From the NCBI RefSeq assembly GCF_036507355.1, contig NZ_AP027877.1: a stretch of DNA of 64,000 bases. One strand, written 5' to 3'. The DNA is from Escherichia coli (lineage in GTDB: Bacteria; Pseudomonadota; Gammaproteobacteria; Enterobacterales; Enterobacteriaceae). The position numbers were made by a program, and so were the translations under genes. The notes under the pieces are model-generated. The model searched no databases. It worked only from the letters and a program-made list of their open reading frames with translations, and was not told where the DNA came from. Of the stretch, positions 2,143 to 60,645 are shown piece by piece (position 1 is the stretch's first letter; every line of letters starts with the position of its first letter).

Positions 2143-3965
2143 ACAGTCTGATTTCCCTGCGGGTTGATCGGTAAAATAAGCGTGAAGGTTGCGCCGTAGC
2201 CCGGCAAACTGGCGACGCGAATATCACCCTGATGGGCATTAATGATGCGTTGACTTAACGCCAGACCAAGCCCGGTTCCTGAGGCTTTGGTGGTGAAAAA
2301 GGGATCGAAGATCTTTTTTTGCAGCGAGAGATCAATGCCACAGCCGTTGTCCTCTATCGAAATGGCCTGTTGTGAGTCGCTGTACTGCCAGGTTCGAATG
2401 CGAATTTTCCCTCGTGCGCTGATAGCCTGGACGGCATTGATCAGGATATTCAGTAGTACCTGTTTGAGCAGTTCACGATCGGCGTTAATCGGGCTTAATT
2501 CATTATCCAGTTCGCTTATGAAGTCGATCCGCGCTTGTACGCCGGCGGTTTGTACCAGTACCAGAGTTTCTTCAACCAATGCATTGAGGCTGACTTGTTG
2601 CCATTGACTGTGGCGTGGACGTGAAAATTCGAGCAATTGCTGAATAACTTTGTTAATTGAATCGATTTCTTTGAGTACTACGGACAGATATTCCTGATGT
2701 ATTAGGTCGCTGGTTTGTTGGCGCAAGATCTGTACATAACCACGAATAGCCGTTAGCGGATTACGTACTTCATGCGCGACGCCAGCCATCAGCTCACCCA
2801 GTGTGGCGAGGCGTTCTGCTTGCGCCATGCGGCGCTGGGTTTCTTTGCGGGCAGTTAAATCAGAGAAAATCACCAAAGCACCTATCATTTCACCGTGCGT
2901 GTTATGAATACGACTGGTAGTGACACTGAGTTCAATGGTGCGGTCACGGCCTGGAAAACTGATCTCCAGCGCCACATGTTCGGTGCCATGTTCCAGCGTA
3001 TCCAGTACTGGACTGTAGAACTGAGTATTGTCGAACAACATGGAGTAAGGCTGCCCTACCAGTTCATGACGTTGATAGCCAGTGATAACTTCTGCTGCCG
3101 GGTTCATGGTGGTTACATCACCCTGGCGGTCAATGGCAATGACGCCATCGGCAGCGTTTTCAATAATCAGATCGTTAAGTGTCCGCGTTTCACGCAGTGC
3201 CTAGGCGAGGTTGTTAACACTCTGACTGATTTGCCCCATTTCACCGGGCAATTGTGGTAATCGAGTGGGAATATTTTGTGCCAGAGTCGAGAGGCCATCG
3301 GTGATGATATCAATATTGGCGCTCAGGCGACGGGAGAAAAGGACAATCAACAGCAGGCTTATCAGCAAACCGGCGGAGAGCACAATGATAATCCTCACAT
3401 CCATTTTCCAGGCCTGGCGGCGAATATCTTCGGTTAATTCATTGGCCCAGATATAGCCGAGGATTTCACCATTACGCTCAATGGGGATCATTGAATTCAA
3501 AATATCGCCGCGCACCTGCCTGCCTGAATACACCAAAGGGGTATTTGCACGCATGACTTCGCGACCAGGGTGATCTGCGGCAATGGTAACGCCGACATTA
3601 TTCTGATATAGCGCTGAAGGCGCGTAGGTGATTATCGCATCCAGCGTTTTGTTGTAATAACCAGCGCCGATGCCAGGGAAGGCGTGAGTGATATTCTCGG
3701 TAATGGGGGCAAGTTCTGCATTTAATGCGCGGATACGCTCCTCACGCGGTAAGTCGATGTAGAGATCGTAGCGATCGCCTAGCGCCTGATTAAGCAGGTT
3801 GACCACGGCAGAAAGTTTTTTCTCTTTTTCAGATAAGACTGCTGAACGTCCTTCTGTTTCTACGATATAACCAATAGTAAGCGTTGGGACAATGACCATC
3901 AGGATTGCCATCAGAATCATTTGATTGCGTAAGCGGCGTGGATAAATCCACTTCATATAATGCAT
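2139..3965 (-). pseudogene. atoS: sensor histidine kinase AtoS interrupted by one in-frame TAG at codon 255 (plus coordinates 3201-3203)
   Basis: Track ORFs 3201..3977 and 2139..3107 are in the same frame and together span exactly 609 codons; translation across the junction reads ...VNNLA*ALRETRTL...; ATG for MHYMKW at 3963-3965. Confidence 0.85.
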
Positions 3966-4131
3966 GCTGAAATCCACTAGTCTTGTCCGGTATATGACGA
4001 TTATCAGAGGTTAAGGTGATGATTTCTCGGCGGTGTATCATATTCCAGAGAAGAGAGAACATTGCGGTAACACGCTTTTACCGCTACCTTAACCACACTC
4101 CATCGGTCACCTGAGGCGGAGCTTCGCCCCT

Positions 4132-6981
4132 TTGAAATACCTTGCTTCTTTTCGTACAACCCTGAAAGCCTCGCGCTACATGTTCAGAGCATTGGCGTTA
4201 GTGCTCTGGCTGTTGATTGCTTTTTCATCCGTTTTTTACATCGTTAATGCGTTACATCAGCGAGAATCGGAAATTCGTCAGGAATTTAATCTGAGTTCCG
4301 ATCAGGCTCAGCGCTTTATTCAACGCACCTCTGATGTGATGAAAGAGCTGAAGTACATCGCCGAAAATCGCTTATCGGCAGAAAACGGTGTGCTTTCCCC
4401 GCGTGGACGAGAAACGCAGGCGGATGTGCCTGCGTTTGAACCGCTGTTTGCCGACTCTGATTGTTCCGCAATGAGTAACACCTGGCGAGGTTCTCTGGAG
4501 TCATTGGCGTGGTTTATGCGCTACTGGCGCGATAATTTTTCTGCGGCTTACGATCTCAACCGGGTATTTTTAATCGGCAGCGATAACCTCTGCATGGCCA
4601 ATTTCGGTCTGCGTGATATGCCAGTGGAACGCGATACCGCGTTGAAAGCGTTGCATGAACGCATCAATAAATATCGAAATGCACCACAAGATGATAGCGG
4701 CAGTAACCTCTACTGGATCAGCGAAGGTCCGCGCCCTGGCGTCGGGTATTTTTACGCGTTGACGCCAGTTTATCTGGCGAACCGGTTGCAGGCGCTTTTG
4801 GGTGTCGAGCAGACCATCCGGATGGAGAATTTTTTCTTACCTGGTACGTTGCCGATGGGGGTTACCATTCTTGATGAAAATGGTCATACCCTGATTTCGC
4901 TTACCGGACCAGAAAGTAAAATTAAGGGCGATCCTCGCTGGATGCAGGAACGCTCCTGGTTTGGCTATACGGAAGGGTTCCGGGAGCTGGTGCTGAAGAA
5001 AAATCTGCCACCCTCATCGCTAAGCATCGTGTATTCGGTGCCGGTTGATAAGGTGCTGGAACGCATTCGCATGTTGATCCTTAACGCAATTTTGCTGAAT
5101 GTGCTTGCCGGAGCTGCATTGTTTACTCTCGCGCGGATGTACGAGCGACGTATTTTCATTCCGGCGGAAAGCGACGCCCTGCGACTGGAAGAACATGAGC
5201 AGTTCAATCGCAAGATTGTCGCCTCCGCGCCAGTGGGTATCTGCATTTTGCGTACCGCTGATGGCGTCAATATTTTAAGTAACGAACTGGCGCATACCTA
5301 TCTCAATATGCTTACGCATGAGGACCGCCAACGACTGACACAAATTATCTGTGGGCAGCAGGTCAATTTTGTTGATGTCCTGACCAGCAACAATACCAAT
5401 CTGCAAATCAGCTTCGTCCATTCGCGCTATCGTAATGAAAACGTGGCCATTTGTGTGCTGGTGGATGTTTCTTCGCGCGTGAAGATGGAAGAGTCGTTGC
5501 AGGAGATGGCACAAGCAGCGGAACAGGCGAGCCAGTCAAAATCGATGTTCCTTGCCACCGTCAGTCATGAGCTGCGAACGCCGCTGTATGGCATTATCGG
5601 TAACCTGGATCTTTTGCAAACCAAAGAGTTACCGAAAGGCGTCGATCGTCTGGTGACGGCAATGAACAACTCTTCCAGCCTGTTGTTGAAAATTATCAGC
5701 GATATTCTCGATTTCTCGAAGATTGAATCGGAACAGTTGAAGATCGAACCGCGTGAGTTTTCACCGCGTGAAGTGATGAACCACATCACCGCCAACTATT
5801 TACCGCTGGTGGTACGCAAGCAGTTAGGCTTGTACTGCTTTATTGAACCGGATGTGCCAGTGGCCTTAAATGGCGACCCGATGCGTTTACAGCAGGTCAT
5901 CTCCAACCTGTTGAGTAACGCCATAAAATTCACCGATACCGGCTGTATAGTTTTGCATGTCCGCGCTGATGGCGATTATCTCTCTATCCGTGTTCGCGAT
6001 ACCGGCGTGGGGATTCCGGCGAAAGAAGTGGTGCGCTTGTTTGATCCCTTCTTCCAGGTCGGAACGGGCGTACAGCGAAACTTCCAGGGGACCGGTCTGG
6101 GTCTGGCGATTTGTGAAAAACTGATCAGCATGATGGACGGCGATATCTCGGTAGATTCAGAACCGGGAATGGGCAGCCAGTTTACCGTGCGTATTCCGTT
6201 GTACGGCGCTCAGTACCCGCAGAAAAAAGGCGTGGAAGGGTTGAGTGGTAAACGCTGCTGGCTGGCGGTCCGCAATGCGTCGCTCTGTCAGTTCCTGGAA
6301 AACAGTTTGCAGCGCAGCGGCATCGTCGTAACAACATACGAAGGGCAGGAACCGACTCCCGAAGATGTGTTAATCACTGACGAGGTAGTGAGTAAAAAAT
6401 GGCAGGGCAGAGCGGTAGTGACCTTCTGTCGTCGACATATTGGTATTCCGCTGGAGAAAGCGCCAGGGGAGTGGGTACACAGTGTGGCTGCCCCGCATGA
6501 GCTACCGGCATTGTTGGCGCGTATTTATTTGATCGAGATGGAGAGCGACGATCCTGCTAACGCTCTGCCGTCGACGGACAAAGCGGTCAGCGATAATGAC
6601 GATATGATGATTCTGGTCGTGGATGATCATCCGATTAACCGACGTCTGCTGGCAGATCAGTTGGGATCGTTGGGCTATCAATGTAAAACCGCGAATGATG
6701 GCGTCGATGCGCTTAATGTACTTAGCAAGAATCATATTGATATCGTGCTTAGCGACGTCAACATGCCAAATATGGATGGTTACCGCTTGACGCAACGCAT
6801 TCGTCAGTTGGGACTGACGTTGCCGGTAATCGGAGTAACTGCTAATGCGTTGGCTGAAGAGAAGCAGCGGTGTCTGGAGTCCGGTATGGACAGCTGCCTC
6901 TCGAAGCCGGTAACGCTGGATGTGATAAAACAGACGCTGACGGTATATGCCGAGAGGGTCAGGAAATCGCGGGAATCGTAG
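4132..6981 (+). CDS. rcsC: hybrid sensor histidine kinase RcsC (949 aa)
   Basis: ORF track; HisKA H-box (SHELRTPL), HATPase and C-terminal receiver domain; convergent with rcsB. Confidence 0.93.
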   Translation: MKYLASFRTTLKASRYMFRALALVLWLLIAFSSVFYIVNALHQRESEIRQEFNLSSDQAQRFIQRTSDVMKELKYIAENRLSAENGVLSPRGRETQADVPAFEPLFADSDCSAMSNTWRGSLESLAWFMRYWRDNFSAAYDLNRVFLIGSDNLCMANFGLRDMPVERDTALKALHERINKYRNAPQDDSGSNLYWISEGPRPGVGYFYALTPVYLANRLQALLGVEQTIRMENFFLPGTLPMGVTILDENGHTLISLTGPESKIKGDPRWMQERSWFGYTEGFRELVLKKNLPPSSLSIVYSVPVDKVLERIRMLILNAILLNVLAGAALFTLARMYERRIFIPAESDALRLEEHEQFNRKIVASAPVGICILRTADGVNILSNELAHTYLNMLTHEDRQRLTQIICGQQVNFVDVLTSNNTNLQISFVHSRYRNENVAICVLVDVSSRVKMEESLQEMAQAAEQASQSKSMFLATVSHELRTPLYGIIGNLDLLQTKELPKGVDRLVTAMNNSSSLLLKIISDILDFSKIESEQLKIEPREFSPREVMNHITANYLPLVVRKQLGLYCFIEPDVPVALNGDPMRLQQVISNLLSNAIKFTDTGCIVLHVRADGDYLSIRVRDTGVGIPAKEVVRLFDPFFQVGTGVQRNFQGTGLGLAICEKLISMMDGDISVDSEPGMGSQFTVRIPLYGAQYPQKKGVEGLSGKRCWLAVRNASLCQFLENSLQRSGIVVTTYEGQEPTPEDVLITDEVVSKKWQGRAVVTFCRRHIGIPLEKAPGEWVHSVAAPHELPALLARIYLIEMESDDPANALPSTDKAVSDNDDMMILVVDDHPINRRLLADQLGSLGYQCKTANDGVDALNVLSKNHIDIVLSDVNMPNMDGYRLTQRIRQLGLTLPVIGVTANALAEEKQRCLESGMDSCLSKPVTLDVIKQTLTVYAERVRKSRES

Positions 6982-55298: not shown

Positions 55299-56765
55299 TT
55301 AAATTTTGAGGGTGTTTAATAGCGCCTGATGCGCGCCGAATTGTACGATTTGTTGCCAGGCTTGTTCGATGGCCTGCACAAAATGCGGGTTATCTGGCAG
55401 ATCATCACCGAAAACTTCACGCAGGGAAAGCAGGGCGGTGACGCGTTGTTCACTGCTGCTGCCCGCAACAAGTTCGCGAATTTTATCGCTAAGCGGATCG
55501 CGAACATCAATGGCATTTCCGGCATCATCAACGCCGCTGACGTAACGCATCCAGCCAGCAACGCCTAATGCCAGCAACGACCAGTCCGTTTCACGCCCCA
55601 GATGTATGCGAATACCTGCCAGCATACGTTGCGGTAATTTCTGGCTGCCATCCATCGCGATTTGCCAGGTCTTATGTTTCAGCGACGGATTAGCAAAACG
55701 TGCAATTAACTTATCCGCATATTGTGTTAAATCGACATCTTTAATTTGCAGTGTCGGCGCTTGCTCATCCAGCATTAATGTTCTGGCGGCATGGCGAAAT
55801 GCGCGATCCTGCATGCAATCACTGATGTGGGCGAATCCTGAGAGGTAACCCAGATAAGCGAGAAAAGAGTGGCTGCCATTAAGCATCCGCAGTTTCATCT
55901 CTTCCCATGGCAGGACATCATTCACCATTTGTACACCTGCGACTTCCCAGGCAGGACGCCCAGCGACGAAGTTATCTTCAACCACCCACTGGATAAACGG
56001 TTCGCAGCTAATCGCGCAGGGATCATTTACCCCCAGATGCTGGCTGATTTCTGCCAGTGATTCGTCGGTTGCAGCCGGAACAATGCGGTCGACCATGGTT
56101 CCCGGAAAACTGACGTGTTCTTTTATCCACCCGGCGAGTTCTGGCGAACGTTTTTCTGCCATTCCCAGCACCGCGTTTTTCACCACATGGCCATTGTCGG
56201 GAATATTGTCGCAGGAGAGCACGGTAAACGGTGTAAGGCCGCGCTCACGGCGGCGTTTCAGTGCTTCGACTAGAATACCTGGCGCGGAGTGAGGTTCTTC
56301 AGGGTTTTGTAGATCGTGAATAATCCGCGGATTGCTGGTGTCGAGTGCACCGGTGGCCGGGTCAATACAATAGCCTTTTTCGGTAATCGTCAGGGAAACA
56401 ATTGCCACCTGTGGCTCGCAAAACTTCTCAATAATTGCCGCTAAGGAATCCAGTTTTGCATTCAGGCATTCGTGAACGGCACCGACAATTATCGCCTGAT
56501 TGCCGTCCGCCCCTTTCTCCAGCACGGTGTATAAATGGTTCTGTGCGCGGAGCTGGCTCATCAGTTGATCACCGCTGAACAAGCTGATTTCACAGATCCC
56601 CCAGTCACCGCCCTGGGCATTCAGCACACGATCGGTCAGTAACGCCTGATGTGCGCGGTGAAAGGCTCCAAAGCCAAAATGAACGATACGTGATTGCAAC
56701 TGCTGGCGATCGTAGCGTGGAGCGTGTACATGATGCGGGAGCGTAACGGAGGCGATTGTATTCAT
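55299..56765 (-). CDS. yeiQ: mannitol dehydrogenase-family oxidoreductase YeiQ (488 aa)
   Basis: ATG at 56763-56765 gives MNTIASVTLP...; the track ORF begins 3 codons earlier. Confidence 0.9.
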   Translation of the reverse strand: MNTIASVTLPHHVHAPRYDRQQLQSRIVHFGFGAFHRAHQALLTDRVLNAQGGDWGICEISLFSGDQLMSQLRAQNHLYTVLEKGADGNQAIIVGAVHECLNAKLDSLAAIIEKFCEPQVAIVSLTITEKGYCIDPATGALDTSNPRIIHDLQNPEEPHSAPGILVEALKRRRERGLTPFTVLSCDNIPDNGHVVKNAVLGMAEKRSPELAGWIKEHVSFPGTMVDRIVPAATDESLAEISQHLGVNDPCAISCEPFIQWVVEDNFVAGRPAWEVAGVQMVNDVLPWEEMKLRMLNGSHSFLAYLGYLSGFAHISDCMQDRAFRHAARTLMLDEQAPTLQIKDVDLTQYADKLIARFANPSLKHKTWQIAMDGSQKLPQRMLAGIRIHLGRETDWSLLALGVAGWMRYVSGVDDAGNAIDVRDPLSDKIRELVAGSSSEQRVTALLSLREVFGDDLPDNPHFVQAIEQAWQQIVQFGAHQALLNTLKI

Positions 56766-56935
56766 AGGAGTCACGTCTTAGTAACGATTAATTAACAATG
56801 ACAGTGTAAAGTTATATGACAGCAATTGAAATTGGTCTGGATTGTTAATGCGATGAAGTGTGAGGGCGATCAATCAACGAGTGAAAATTGCGGGCATAAG
56901 GTGTTCAGGAAGCGCAAAATAGAAGATTGGTATAA

Positions 56936-56970
56936 TAAATTAAAAAAGGGACAGCCTGAGCTATCCCTTT
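56936..56970 (-). terminator. rho-independent terminator of yeiP
   Basis: Minus strand: hairpin AAGGGATAGC-TCAG-GCTGTCCCTT then TTTTTTAATTT. Confidence 0.75.
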
Positions 56971-56987
56971 TCTGCATGCGGCTGAAG

Positions 56988-57560
56988 TTAGTCAGCACGC
57001 CCCATATAACGGCGTTCTTCGATATGGATACGAATTTTTTCGCCCGGGCTTAAGTATTCTGGTACCTGAATCACCAGACCAGTGCTCAATGTCGCCGGTT
57101 TGTTACGGGCGCTGGCAGATGCCCCTTTGATGCCTGGTGCGGTTTCAACGATTTCCAGATCAACGGTCTGCGGCAGCTCAAGCGCCAGCAGTTGACCGTC
57201 CCAGGTCAGCACCTGCATGTCCGGCATGCCGCCTTCTGGCATAAACAGCAACTCTTCTTCAATCTGATCTTTGGTGAAGGTATACGGGGTATAGTCTTCT
57301 TTATCCATAAAGACATATTCGTTACCATCGACATAGGAGAAGTCAACGTAACGGCGGGTCAGCGTCACGGTGTCAACGATATCATCACCTTTGAAACGCT
57401 CTTCTACTTTCAGCCCGGTACGGACATCAGAAAAACGCATTTTGTACAGCGTAGCGGCACCGCGGGCAGTGGGCGACTGAATATCAATGTCCTTAACCAG
57501 CAGCAGTTTGCCGTTGTAATTCAGTACCATACCTTTTTTAATTTCGTTCGCTCTTGGCAT
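56988..57560 (-). CDS. yeiP: elongation factor P-like protein YeiP (190 aa)
   Basis: ATG at 57558-57560 gives [15 protein letters not shown]...; the track's 275-aa ORF is an upstream extension. Confidence 0.92.
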
Positions 57561-57714
57561 CGAAAAATTCCTGTAGTCGAAAATGTCAAAAATATCGCGA
57601 CAAAGTACTCGCGACGGGCCTTTCGGGCAAGTGGTATTCGCACTTTTGCTGGTGCAAAAAAGGTGGTACTGTGCGCGCTCATCAATCCGGTGGTTAACCT
57701 TAAGAGAACAACGT

Positions 57715-57969
57715 ATGGAATGCCGTCCGGGTTGCGGGGCGTGTTGCACTGCCCCTTCAATTTCCAGCCCTATTCCCGGTATGCCAGATGGCAAGCCCGC
57801 CAATACGCCCTGCATTCAGCTTGATGAACAGCAACGCTGTAAAATTTTCACCTCGCCACTGCGGCCGAAAGTCTGTGCAGGCTTACAAGCCAGCGCTGAA
57901 ATGTGCGGTAACTCGCGTCAGCAGGCAATGACCTGGCTTATCGATCTGGAAATGCTGACCGCGCCTTAA
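57715..57969 (+). CDS. yeiW: small cysteine-rich protein YeiW, KCU-star family (84 aa)
   Basis: ATG at 57715 gives [14 protein letters not shown]...; the track ORF 57583..57969 is an upstream extension. Confidence 0.85.
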
Positions 57970-59147
57970 ACATCTTTAATCCGCAGTAAGCAAAACAGAG
58001 TGGCGATAATCATCACCATCGCAAACCAGAACACAGCGTGATAATTCCAGATCTCGGCGACGATGCCCGCTACAGATCCTGCGATGATCCAGCCCACGCG
58101 CGACGTGTTGGTATAGAGCGTGGTGGCTGAACCTGCCTGACCGGGCATCAAATCCTGAAAATAGAGCATCCCGATGCCGCCCAGAATGCCAATAAAAATA
58201 GCATTTAGCAGTTGCAAGCCCAACAGAATGGCAGGTGAATGCGCCATCAGCATTCCTGCGTAAAAACAGACGCCACCCACGGCAGCAACGCGCATTAAGA
58301 AACGCTTACCCAGACGTTTGGCAAAATATCCGGCAATCAACATGGTCGGGATTTCCAGCCCGGCGGCGGTCCCCATCATTACGCCTGCCAGTTTCTCGGG
58401 AAGATGCAGTTCGTTGATTATAAATAGCGGCATGTTGATGATGTACAGACTGTTCGAGCCCCACATCAATGTACAAATGACAAACAGCAGCAGCGTATCG
58501 CGACGGTTACGGCGCGGCGCTTCAAGCGTGCCGGTCGCCAGCGGAAGCTCTTTTTGCATCGACGGTAAAAACAGCCACACCATCACGCCGCAAACAATAA
58601 ATGCTACCGCTGCGCTCAGATACATTACCGTAAAGCTGAACCCCATCGCTAAGGCATAAGCCAGCGGTGGGCCAATGACCCATGCCAGTGAAACCTGAGC
58701 GCGTAAAAAAGAGCTGAACATCACCGCCTCACGTCCGGTTTTGTCGGCATGTTCACGGGCAAGGGCAAACATTTGCGGGTTAGCGGTCGAGCCAAAGCTG
58801 CTAAGAAAGACGCCAACGAATAGCAAAACAAAGTAGTTGCGATTCCAGGCAAAAAGGGTGCAGGCCAGCACGCCTAACAGGCAGCAAAAGACAATCAGCG
58901 ATTTGCGATCGCCGCGCTTATCAGAGCGCCCGGCGAGAAACTGACTCACCAGAATCCCAATGACAGCGCTGCCGGTAAAGAAGAATCCCACCATCGCCGG
59001 ACGGGCATGTACTTCATCGGTAAGAAAAATACTGAGTGTCGGGGTTTGCAGAGCGCCCGCAATACCGGTGAGAAAGGCAACGATTAAAAACGCCGTCGAG
59101 GTCAGGTCAAACGATTTCGCGCTGGAGACTGCGGGGGAGTTATGCAT
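57966..59147 (-). CDS. setB: sugar efflux transporter SetB, MFS (393 aa)
   Basis: ORF track; 12-TM MFS; stop overlaps yeiW stop (TTAA). Confidence 0.92.
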
Positions 59148-59412
59148 GCTGGTCGATCACTGGAAGAGGAAGACGCGGAGTTTACGCTGCTTGTCAGAAA
59201 ATAAACAGACAGCGAAATCAAAAGCGCCACGAATAATCAAAATGCCATTTCACTGTTGCTGATTGGCTGCTGACGCTGCTGAAATGAAATTGCTGATAAC
59301 GGATTTTCCCATCAGCAATTAGGAAAAATGACAAAAAATTGTGCAGCACATCAAACTTTTGCTCATAACTTTACGGCTTTCCTTGCGTGCTGAAACAGAA
59401 GTATTATGCTTT

Positions 59413-59500
59413 CTTGAAACGTTTCAGCGCGATCTTGTCTTTAACCCTAAGCCAGGTTGGCGCTTTTTTTCTCATAGAAGCTGAATCGTTTCAATTCAGC
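59413..59500 (+). promoter_or_regulatory. fruB control region with two Cra/FruR-type operators: CTTGAAACGTTTCAGCG (59413-59429) and GCTGAATCGTTTCAATTCAGC (59480-59500)
   Basis: Palindromic TGAAWCGTTTCA cores read directly; second site lies in the leader 15 bp upstream of the fruB ATG. Confidence 0.7.
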
Positions 59501-59514
59501 AAGAGAGGAGAACT

Positions 59515-60645
59515 ATGTTCCAGTTATCCGTACAGGACATCCATCCGGGCGAAAAGGCCGGAGACAAAGAAGAGGCGATTCGCCAGGTCGCTGCGGCGCT
59601 GGTGCAGGCCGGTAATGTAGCAGAAGGCTACGTCAATGGCATGCTGGCGCGCGAACAGCAAACCTCAACGTTCCTCGGCAATGGTATTGCTATTCCACAC
59701 GGCACTACCGACACCCGCGATCAGGTGCTGAAAACCGGCGTTCAGGTATTTCAGTTCCCGGAAGGCGTCACCTGGGGTGACGGTCAGGTAGCGTACGTAG
59801 CGATCGGTATTGCTGCCAGCTCGGATGAGCATCTGGGCCTGCTACGCCAGCTGACCCACGTACTGAGCGATGATTCCGTTGCTGAACAACTGAAGTCAGC
59901 AACAACAGCAGAAGAACTTCGCGCATTGCTGATGGGCGAAAAGCAGAGTGAGCAGTTGAAGCTCGACAACGAAATGCTGACGCTGGATATCGTCGCCAGC
60001 GATCTGCTGACTCTTCAGGCGCTGAACGCTGCGCGTCTGAAAGAAGCGGGGGCAGTTGACGCCACTTTCGTCACCAAAGCCATCAATGAACAACCGCTGA
60101 ACCTCGGACAGGGCATCTGGCTGAGCGATAGCGCCGAAGGCAATCTGCGTAGCGCGATTGCGGTAAGCCGTGCGGCAAATGCTTTTGATGTGGACGGCGA
60201 AACGGCAGCCATGCTGGTGAGTGTGGCGATGAATGACGATCAGCCCATTGCGGTTCTTAAGCGTCTCGCTGATTTGTTGCTCGACAATAAAGCTGACCGC
60301 TTGCTGAAAGCGGATGCGGCAACGTTGCTGGCGCTGCTGACCAGCGATGATGCGCCGACCGACGACGTGTTAAGCGCGGAGTTTGTGGTGCGCAATGAAC
60401 ACGGCCTGCATGCTCGTCCAGGTACCATGCTGGTCAACACCATTAAACAATTTAACAGTGATATTACCGTGACAAACCTTGATGGCACCGGCAAACCGGC
60501 AAACGGACGTAGTCTGATGAAAGTTGTGGCACTTGGCGTTAAGAAAGGTCATCGCCTACGCTTTACCGCCCAGGGTGCAGATGCTGAACAGGCGCTGAAA
60601 GCAATCGGCGACGCTATCGCTGCTGGTCTTGGGGAGGGCGCATAA
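59515..60645 (+). CDS. fruB: fructose PTS multiphosphoryl transfer protein FruB (IIA-FPr) (376 aa)
   Basis: ORF track; IIA-Fru domain and C-terminal HPr-like domain (GLHARP). Confidence 0.93.

Follow-up and report, generated by a model that had tools for sequence, protein, structure and literature searches.

The stretch of DNA analysed here (hereafter the window) comprises 64,000 nucleotides of the Escherichia coli contig NZ_AP027877.1. Two genes, yeiW and setB, converge in the window and meet tail to tail, and the yeiP gene lies on the far side of yeiW. As gene order and strands indicate, setB and yeiP are co-directional, and yeiW is located antisense between them. The features of the region are as follows:

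56988..57560, minus strand: yeiP (efpL) coding sequence, with the Pfam domains EFP_N, EFP and Elong-fact-P_C (RefSeq)
57715..57969, plus strand: yeiW coding sequence, 84 residues, a YkgJ/CxxCxxCC cysteine-cluster protein (Pfam PF03692, E=7e-08; RefSeq)
57966..57969, both strands: the yeiW/setB TTAA tetramer, which provides a stop codon on each strand
57966..59147, minus strand: setB coding sequence, 393 residues, an MFS sugar efflux transporter (Pfam PF07690, MFS_1, E=8e-44; RefSeq)

Both yeiW and setB are genuine genes and not mispredictions. The two products carry Pfam domains and are conserved across genera up to their C-termini, which read ...TAP in YeiW and ...RIKDV in SetB. Database comparisons confirmed 563 relatives, with matches over the full length at 65-99% identity, and the same C-terminal end is conserved across Enterobacterales and into the Betaproteobacteria. 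The start of yeiW is the annotated ATG at 57715; a longer frame of 128 residues opens at 57583 and shows no conservation upstream of this ATG. Known RNA families were absent from positions 56500-59700 at E <= 1, and a scan of positions 56700-59600 for the sigma-70 consensus gave no match at the scan threshold.

A rival explanation of what is described below would be an annotation artefact, in which yeiW is either unreal or ends upstream, so that no true overlap with setB exists. YeiW is indeed short and functionally uncharacterised, the main yeiW RNA has its 3' end 44-45 nt into the open reading frame, and one E. coli strain (EC18) carries yeiW as a pseudogene. Against this stand the CxxCxxCC domain, the full-length conservation of the protein with an unchanged C-terminus from Enterobacterales to Betaproteobacteria, the agreement of three gene-calling sources on yeiW, and a stop-codon usage that is constrained just as two real stops predict. 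The artefact reading is effectively refuted by the conservation data, and we attach almost no credence to it. The original prediction was to be abandoned if yeiW proved to be unexpressed or to have its true stop upstream; we found a conserved protein with precisely this stop, and the yeiW promoter is reported to be inducible by vanillin (4.3-fold).

The yeiW and setB stop codons coincide in the tetramer at 57966-57969 (T57966, T57967, A57968 and A57969), and the letters around the junction, from 57960 to 57974, are cgcgccTTAAacatc. On the plus strand, TAA at 57967-57969 ends yeiW; on the minus strand, TAA at 57966-57968 ends setB. T57966 doubles as the wobble base of the last YeiW codon (Pro, CCT); the wobble base of the last SetB codon (Val, GTT) is the pairing partner of A57969. 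The coding sequences share exactly 4 nt, one extending over 57715..57969 (+) and the other over 57966..59147 (-). The overlap of two TAA stops had been proposed from the letters of the sequence, and its coordinates proved exact when compared with the sequence, the list of open reading frames and RefSeq. The same 4-bp overlap is found in a RefSeq/PGAP record of E. coli, in which yeiW is annotated at 2816..3070 (+) and setB at 3067..4248 (-), and it was recovered on ten contigs of E. cloacae when genes were called independently.

TTAA belongs to the set of four-base sequences (CTAA, TTAA, CTAG and TTAG) permitted in 4-nt convergent overlaps. Stops on the plus strand end with A or G, and the complement of a stop on the minus strand has T or C as its first base. 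This rules out convergent overlaps of fewer than 4 nt (1, 2 or 3 nt), and the 4-nt form, YTAR, is the smallest that can exist. Two independent stops have the central TA of YTAR in common, and TGA is unable to form part of such an overlap. Each stop is read on its own mRNA, so that yeiW and setB are not coupled in translation.

Within E. coli, a 141-nt junction probe matched in a single piece at >=95% identity in 5,408 of 5,426 complete genomes, which accordingly carry the junction intact. In strain EC18, an internal deletion has turned yeiW into a pseudogene, and the junction is still intact; yeiW is thus dispensable. A scan of one genome per species yielded 80 loci with a YeiW homolog, at which both stops were placed by scripts. 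A convergent SetB homolog adjoins yeiW in 52 species, and the exact 4-bp overlap occurs in 42 of these (counts not corrected for phylogeny). The overlap is conserved over at least 15 genera, which include Escherichia, Citrobacter, Kluyvera, Enterobacter, Kosakonia and Pluralibacter, as well as Buttiauxella, Cedecea, Superficieibacter, Huaxiibacter and Rahnella. These data show fixation of the arrangement in E. coli as well as in the majority of Enterobacteriaceae genera.

All four permitted tetramers are represented at the 42 orthologous junctions (TTAA 20, CTAA 19, CTAG 2 and TTAG 1). Alignment A1, which covers 37 junctions and has no gaps, shows invariant T57967 and A57968, T or C at position 57966, and A or G at position 57969. 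The last YeiW codon at the overlap loci is Pro, written either CCT (21) or CCC (21), and the last SetB codon always ends with a pyrimidine (GTT 35, ATC 3, ATT 2, AGT 1 and GCT 1). The yeiW stop is TAA or TAG at all 42 overlap loci and TGA at 26 of the 38 loci that have no overlap.

The exceptions to the 4-bp form include cases in which one of the stops has been altered. For instance, in Entomohabitans (locus L041) the yeiW TAA has become TGA and the setB stop has been destroyed, SetB being extended by 8 aa and the overlap lengthened to 28 nt. In a metagenome-assembled genome (locus L053), the yeiW TAA has become GAA, YeiW has gained 5 aa, and the overlap measures 13 nt. As judged from their sequences, the two stop-loss derivatives are the failure modes that a shared-stop constraint predicts. 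Small insertions separate the stops in a few taxa: a 23-nt insertion carrying its own small inverted repeat lies between the yeiW and setB stops in Citrobacter sp. MGH106, and the stops are 25-32 nt apart in two Klebsiella species. Two further loci suggest that overlaps of this type may have arisen more than once. Rahnella has the same 4-bp overlap, yet its SetB tail is 13 aa longer, and the yeiW homolog of Rugamonas shares TTAA with an unrelated gene, that of a Peptidase_M64 protein. We take both as support for independent origins.

Overlaps of this kind are well known. Convergent overlaps of 4 nt formed by CTAA, TTAA, CTAG or TTAG appear as a spike and are the modal class in bacterial genomes (Lillo & Krakauer 2007, PMC2174442). 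Tables 2 and 3 of that study imply a length of less than 5 nt for about 670 of the 1,890 convergent overlaps counted in 58 genomes, and a model based on the mutation of stop codons fits the convergent class (PMC2174442). The yeiW/setB pair likewise shares four bases that hold both stops and form a permitted tetramer, and its origin fits the same stop-codon-mutation model. Rho-independent terminators have been found in just ~20% of the E. coli genes involved in convergent overlaps (PMC2174442); yeiW and setB, which have none, are in this respect like most of these genes. No essential difference separates the pair from the class.

The yeiW/setB overlap, taken alone, is consequently of little significance: it is annotated in every E. 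coli record, it is ordinary, it belongs to the commonest class of convergent overlap, which was described by 2007, and the pair has been catalogued. What is added here, for one instance of the class, is the occurrence of all four tetramers across genera, the stop-loss derivatives and the small stop-separating insertions in a few taxa. The pair offers a clean natural example of a shared stop tetramer that constrains both partners, as only a pyrimidine at position 1 and a purine at position 4 are seen, TGA is excluded, and loss of a stop lengthens one protein.

Given these data, we consider it likely that the yeiW/setB junction is a minimal tail-to-tail overlap of two reading frames that has no dedicated function, that arose neutrally and has been stabilised by selection, and whose effects on transcription are limited by a terminator inside yeiW, by Rho and by a terminator in the fruB leader. 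Where a pyrimidine stands before TAA or TAG, the other strand likewise reads TAA or TAG; a convergent reading frame that enters in the proper frame therefore stops there automatically. The overlap may accordingly have originated by such stop-codon capture. Its maintenance would require nothing beyond purifying selection of the ordinary kind, acting on both stops and on the conserved C-termini of both proteins. Selection of this kind would allow just T or C at position 1 and A or G at position 4, both being synonymous in the last codon of the partner, and would penalise any indel at the junction. The exceptional loci, together with Rahnella and Rugamonas, fit a course of stop-codon capture followed by ordinary purifying selection.

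The way in which transcripts end around the junction is relevant to any effect of the overlap. The elements identified are as follows:

57736..57765, plus strand: intrinsic-terminator-like element in yeiW, consisting of the hairpin GGGGCGUGUUGCACUGCCCC (57736-57755) and the tail UUCAAUUUCC (terminator scan)
57970..58099, plus strand: untranslated stretch past the yeiW stop, a candidate Rho-loading region with C>G, antisense to the 3' end of setB
59426..59471, plus strand: intrinsic terminator in the fruB leader, with a hairpin (59426-59464), a T7 run (59464-59470) and the 3' end at 59471
57584..57615, minus strand: hairpin GUCGCGAGUACUUUGUCGCGAU followed by AUUUUU, just upstream of yeiP (terminator scan)

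A consensus terminator scan found no site on the plus strand after 57969 and none on the minus strand between 57965 and 57616. A canonical intrinsic terminator, i.e. a GC-rich hairpin with a U-tract within ~100 nt past the stop, is absent after both yeiW and setB, and the nearest terminator-like sites are those at 57736-57765 (+) inside yeiW, 59426-59471 (+) and 57615-57584 (-). The claim that no terminator lies between the genes is borne out by the scan and by the complete lack of intergenic space. In the absence of both spacer and terminator, RNA polymerase that finishes either gene must run into the coding sequence of the partner. The original prediction, which places the ends of convergent transcripts within the partner gene, is logically correct for such polymerases, although its significance was overstated; it does not extend to the many yeiW transcripts that, on Term-seq evidence, probably stop earlier.

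The hairpin inside yeiW has a predicted folding energy of -13.1 kcal/mol. A single 3' end is listed for yeiW by Term-seq, at MG1655 position 2265251/2265250, and it was detected in all three growth conditions (Adams et al., PMC7815308). It is covered by 66,368 and 52,260 reads and has an intrinsic score of 6.97, a value of >=3 being suggestive of intrinsic termination, and a Rho score of 1.36, flagged 'No' (PMC7815308). The sequence given in the Term-seq table consists of 50 nt, the end nucleotide and 10 nt, a layout that we checked on the SgrS row. The end accordingly maps to positions 57759/57760 of the window, 44-45 nt past the ATG, 4-5 nt past the hairpin and ~210 nt upstream of TTAA. According to these published data, a large share of yeiW transcripts end at the terminator-like hairpin, and many transcripts from the yeiW promoter probably never reach the tetramer. 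The distance between the main transcript end and the junction weakens the case for strong antisense interference. The Term-seq tables for the three conditions (PMC7815308) contain no 3' end for setB or antisense to setB, and the TERMITe supplements make no mention of either yeiW or setB.

The GGNGC/GCNCC core of the hairpin stem is dictated by an invariant 11-residue peptide. At the central wobble pair, 0.48 of the sequences show complementary bases versus 0.41 in shuffles, and 288 of 5,000 shuffles reach the observed value. The hairpin is thus mostly a by-product of the protein motif. A conserved attenuator role was considered and rejected, the stem being forced by the peptide and the covariation at the wobble pair being weak and unconvincing. 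The version with the full stem and the U-rich tail is the K-12 type, to which this window also belongs.

Over the first 130 nt past the yeiW stop, the C/G ratio measured in 78-nt windows is 1.2-1.6, the window-wide 90th percentile being 1.56. Upon treatment with bicyclomycin, DirectRNA-seq coverage of the 800 nt that follow the internal yeiW end rose from 27 to 114 reads; around MG1655 position 2263539, reads rose from 30 to 169 in the upstream 800 nt and from 31 to 46 (1.5-fold) on the fruB side (PMC7815308). In window coordinates, plus-strand coverage increased 4.2-fold over ~57760-58559 and 5.6-fold over ~58671-59470, figures that derive from low coverage (26-31 reads per 800 nt) at ends for which the authors flagged no significant Rho termination. 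From these low-coverage data, Rho appears to suppress transcription antisense to setB. Transcripts reaching TTAA would emerge as untranslated C>G RNA and may be terminated by Rho within the setB antisense region. Those escaping Rho would be halted by the strong fruB-leader terminator, whose 3' end (MG1655 2263539) is covered by 218,310-431,335 Term-seq reads and has an intrinsic score of 9.61 (PMC7815308). This end, at 59471, is located 44 nt upstream of the fruB ATG, and the terminator may be the final obstacle to transcripts that traverse setB in antisense, insulating fruB from them.

The opposite strand looks different. The RNA past the setB stop is G-rich across the yeiW antisense region (C/G 0.5-0.9), a composition that suits Rho poorly. 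Having crossed yeiW, a setB transcript would first meet a terminator-like site in the hairpin at 57615-57584 (-). The element sits in a conserved promoter- or leader-like block directly upstream of yeiP, and it probably belongs to the promoter or leader of that gene. A conserved setB terminator at this position was rejected, as the criteria for a terminator-like site were passed in 8 of 36 taxa only and alifold gave no conserved stem. Transcripts of setB would cross the G-rich yeiW antisense stretch and probably either terminate around the promoter region of yeiP or continue past it.

An alternative view of the junction itself is prompted by one further feature:

57953..57992, both strands: imperfect palindrome centred just 3' of TTAA, able to form a hairpin of ~15 bp in both transcripts, with no U-tract

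The palindrome might act as a bidirectional terminator, at which polymerases arriving from both sides pause and are released by head-on collision with the help of a trailing polymerase. Overlapping bidirectional terminators between convergent E. coli genes were reportedly seen by Ju et al. in 2019 using SEnd-seq. Bidirectional terminators lacking U-tracts have been tied to termination by polymerase collision between convergent E. coli genes (bioRxiv 10.1101/2022.10.23.513370). The yeiW/setB pair resembles these cases in being convergent, in lacking a canonical U-tract terminator and in having a hairpin-capable palindrome centred on the junction, which folds better than expected on both strands (z=-2.83 on the plus strand and z=-2.10 on the minus strand). 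It differs from them in its low expression and in the lack of both mapped 3' ends at the junction and covariation; moreover, the described elements are located in intergenic spacers, whereas the element at yeiW/setB would consist of the last codons of both genes.

Comparative data argue against a selected structure. Across 37 taxa, the paired fraction at 57953-57992 is 62.5% versus 62.4% in shuffles, covariation scores lower than the average of the shuffles, and no consensus pairs were predicted for the segment by RNAalifold. The junction hairpin was therefore rejected as a selected structure. An inverted-repeat search at the junction with exact seeds likewise found nothing. The conserved UAAA/UUUA and GCG/CGC cores are explained by the terminal codons of the two proteins, namely, Ala-Pro-stop in YeiW and Arg-Ile-Lys-Asp-Val-stop in SetB. 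No Term-seq 3' end was present near the junction on either strand in the three conditions, in which low expression could hide weak ends. Given the weak expression of yeiW and setB (26-31 reads per 800 nt), collisions between their polymerases would be rare. Termination by collision at the palindrome is, in our judgement, improbable.

A second alternative ascribes a regulatory function to the overlap. The setB-yeiW pair is one of 165 convergent excludons of MG1655 reported in an RNA-seq survey carried out with ExcludonFinder (NAR 2025, PMC12288877). Listing rests on RNA-seq in >=50% of 58 transcriptomes, and excludon pairs, as a class, exhibit raised synteny (PMC12288877). According to this reading, the overlap is kept to guarantee complementary 3' ends of the yeiW and setB transcripts, the more strongly transcribed gene represses the other through polymerase collision and cleavage of the duplex by RNase III, and the yeiW +44 terminator is a switch for entry into setB. 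Several observations are compatible with such a functional excludon. No terminator follows either stop, so that the transcripts, if both genes are fully transcribed, are logically required to overlap by at least 4 nt; the yeiW promoter is inducible; and the terminator within the yeiW reading frame could give conditional read-through. The conservation of the overlap over at least 15 genera, or the 80% retention of its exact 4-bp form, could also reflect selection for obligatory transcript overlap. A characterised convergent precedent in E. coli is mscL-arfA (PMC10070815), which features in the same excludon table as yeiW/setB; for mscL-arfA, a regulatory 3' antisense overlap is reported with experimental support, which sets the pair apart from setB-yeiW.

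The geometry of yeiW/setB resembles that of an excludon, as the genes are adjacent, lie on opposite strands and, if fully transcribed, would necessarily overlap in their 3' transcript ends. The hallmark of excludons is mutually exclusive expression achieved via interference or RNase III, which for yeiW/setB is hypothetical. ExcludonFinder extends outward from the end of the coding sequence until coverage drops below 50% of the gene mean (PMC12288877). Since the extension starts at the end of the coding sequence, a call is presumably nearly automatic for genes that already overlap. Most yeiW transcripts, moreover, seem to end before the overlap. Capture of double-stranded RNA by p19 revealed duplexes at yeiP, yeiQ and fruK and none at yeiW/setB among the entries listed, the method being reportedly insensitive at 3' UTRs.

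The distribution of the two genes also weighs against an excludon function. Many taxa keep yeiW without setB, setB being lost or degraded in some species (loci L008, L014 and L024), and EC18 keeps setB with a dead yeiW. In many Salmonella genomes, a 1-kb island lies between yeiW and setB. As each gene persists without the other and the island parts them in Salmonella, yeiW and setB show no sign of obligate coupling. Selection acting on the stops and C-termini accounts in full for the conservation of the junction, and the wobble pair of the +44 hairpin shows no clear covariation. A functional excludon is in our view unlikely. Antisense interference between yeiW and setB as such is possible, and at basal expression it is likely small.

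A specific form of the same idea is a conditional antisense switch. Under conditions that induce yeiW and allow its efficient translation, e.g., vanillin or oxidative or metal stress, ribosomes would melt the +44 hairpin and polymerase would proceed through TTAA into setB, lowering the expression of the efflux pump; the overlap would then be retained by selection for this coupling and not just for two stops. As yeiW is expressed and its promoter is vanillin-inducible, conditional read-through at yeiW is conceivable. The complete scheme strikes us as a long shot. If true, it would link the gene of a stress-inducible, small cysteine-cluster protein to the control of a sugar efflux pump by interference. 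The interpretation that we favour, a neutral overlap of two stops held in place by ordinary selection, calls for no such coupling.

The arrangement of the region recalls one further type of organization. In noncontiguous operons (Saenz-Lahoya et al. 2019, cited in PMC12288877), co-directional genes are separated by a gene on the opposite strand, a geometry matched by setB and yeiP with yeiW between them; the three noncontiguous operons reported for MG1655 do not comprise the setB-yeiW-yeiP trio (PMC12288877), and joint transcription of setB and yeiP is hypothetical. An overlapping pair named pic/setB also occurs in the literature; it involves a different gene of the same name at the ShET1 toxin locus and is irrelevant to yeiW/setB. 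A dif-like Xer site at or near the junction was considered in the light of the EcloIMEX literature and rejected, the best match covering 12-13 of 22 arm positions, which is the background level. The ten E. cloacae contexts that encode an identical YeiW protein are all island-free.

The stop codons of the convergent yeiW and setB genes, which share the TTAA tetramer at 57966-57969, are separated in some of the yeiW loci compared from other genomes (L-numbers). In Citrobacter sp. MGH106 (L035:3250-3280), for instance, the stops are split by a 23-nt insertion, CTAGAGCCAGTCCCATCAGGCTC, which provides yeiW with a new TAG and bears the inverted repeat AGAGCC/GGCTCT. This insertion could be a footprint left behind by a small element, or a mini-terminator formed de novo. 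Klebsiella indica (L060:3255-3290) and K. oxytoca (L079) have their two stops set apart by spacers of 25-32 nt. The end of the K. indica spacer, ...ATCGCGCCTTA, lies beside the setB stop and is similar to ACCGCGCCTTA, the 3' end that yeiW usually has; stops that are set apart may therefore have arisen from the overlapped state. In Rugamonas sp. A1-17 (L077:3255-4997), a yeiW homolog shares TTAA with a convergent Peptidase_M64 gene, an unrelated partner, and this is an independent 4-bp overlap. In the urinary isolate E. coli EC18 (L092, NZ_CP060914.1 1944117-1944206), an internal deletion affects yeiW, annotated there as a pseudogene; both setB and the TTAA are intact.

Larger insertions are known from Salmonella, in which the phase-variable opvAB operon, a horizontally acquired, low-GC fragment of 992 nt, is found between setB and yeiW in 1,717 of the 4,583 subsp. 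enterica genomes (PMC12902445). The tail-to-tail junction is thus an island insertion point in Salmonella. In the Enterobacter cloacae complex, the literature links the setB-yeiP interval to EcloIMEX islands, and the loci compared (L046 and L082-L091) are all empty sites. A sequence like E. coli dif was not found in this interval, the best candidates matching 12-13 of the 22 arm positions.

The E. coli junction is flanked by an inverted repeat:

57943-57951 and 58045-58053: perfect 9-bp inverted repeat, GATCTGGAA / TTCCAGATC, with arms about 100 nt apart

Each arm contains a GATC (Dam) site, and in the + strand fold the two pair as the outer stem. The repeat is not kept in other genera, as evidenced by the variation in columns 15-23 of the gap-free alignment of 37 yeiW/setB junctions (A1).

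Published Term-seq maps of MG1655 RNA 3' ends (PMC7815308) place strong ends at two hairpins:

57736-57765, + strand: GC-rich hairpin with a U-rich tail in yeiW, built by the sequence coding for the CxxCxxCC motif
59426-59471, + strand: hairpin followed by a T7 run in the fruB leader, with a very strong published 3' end after the run, 44 nt before the ATG of fruB

The yeiW-internal end, at 57759/57760, is represented by 52,000-66,000 reads in three conditions and has an intrinsic score of 6.97 (PMC7815308), which implies that the 5' end of yeiW gives rise to an abundant short RNA or that transcription terminates prematurely within the ORF. The fruB-leader end (218,000-431,000 reads, intrinsic score 9.61) is classed as "orphan" in the same source (PMC7815308); it is either a fruBKA attenuator or abundant leader RNA, or a stop for setB-antisense transcripts.

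One conserved element lies on the other side of yeiW:

within 57561-57714, - strand: block CTTGCCTGAAAGGCCCGnCGCGAGTAnTTTnnCGCGATATTTT in the yeiW-yeiP spacer, upstream of yeiP (efpL) and kept across genera

This block, which holds a short CGCG stem and has a terminator-like score in E. coli, looks like a promoter or leader of yeiP. Within setB, genomic SELEX revealed a weak binding peak of the sigma-28 holoenzyme (MG1655 ~2262454, intensity 6.2; PMC5493296).
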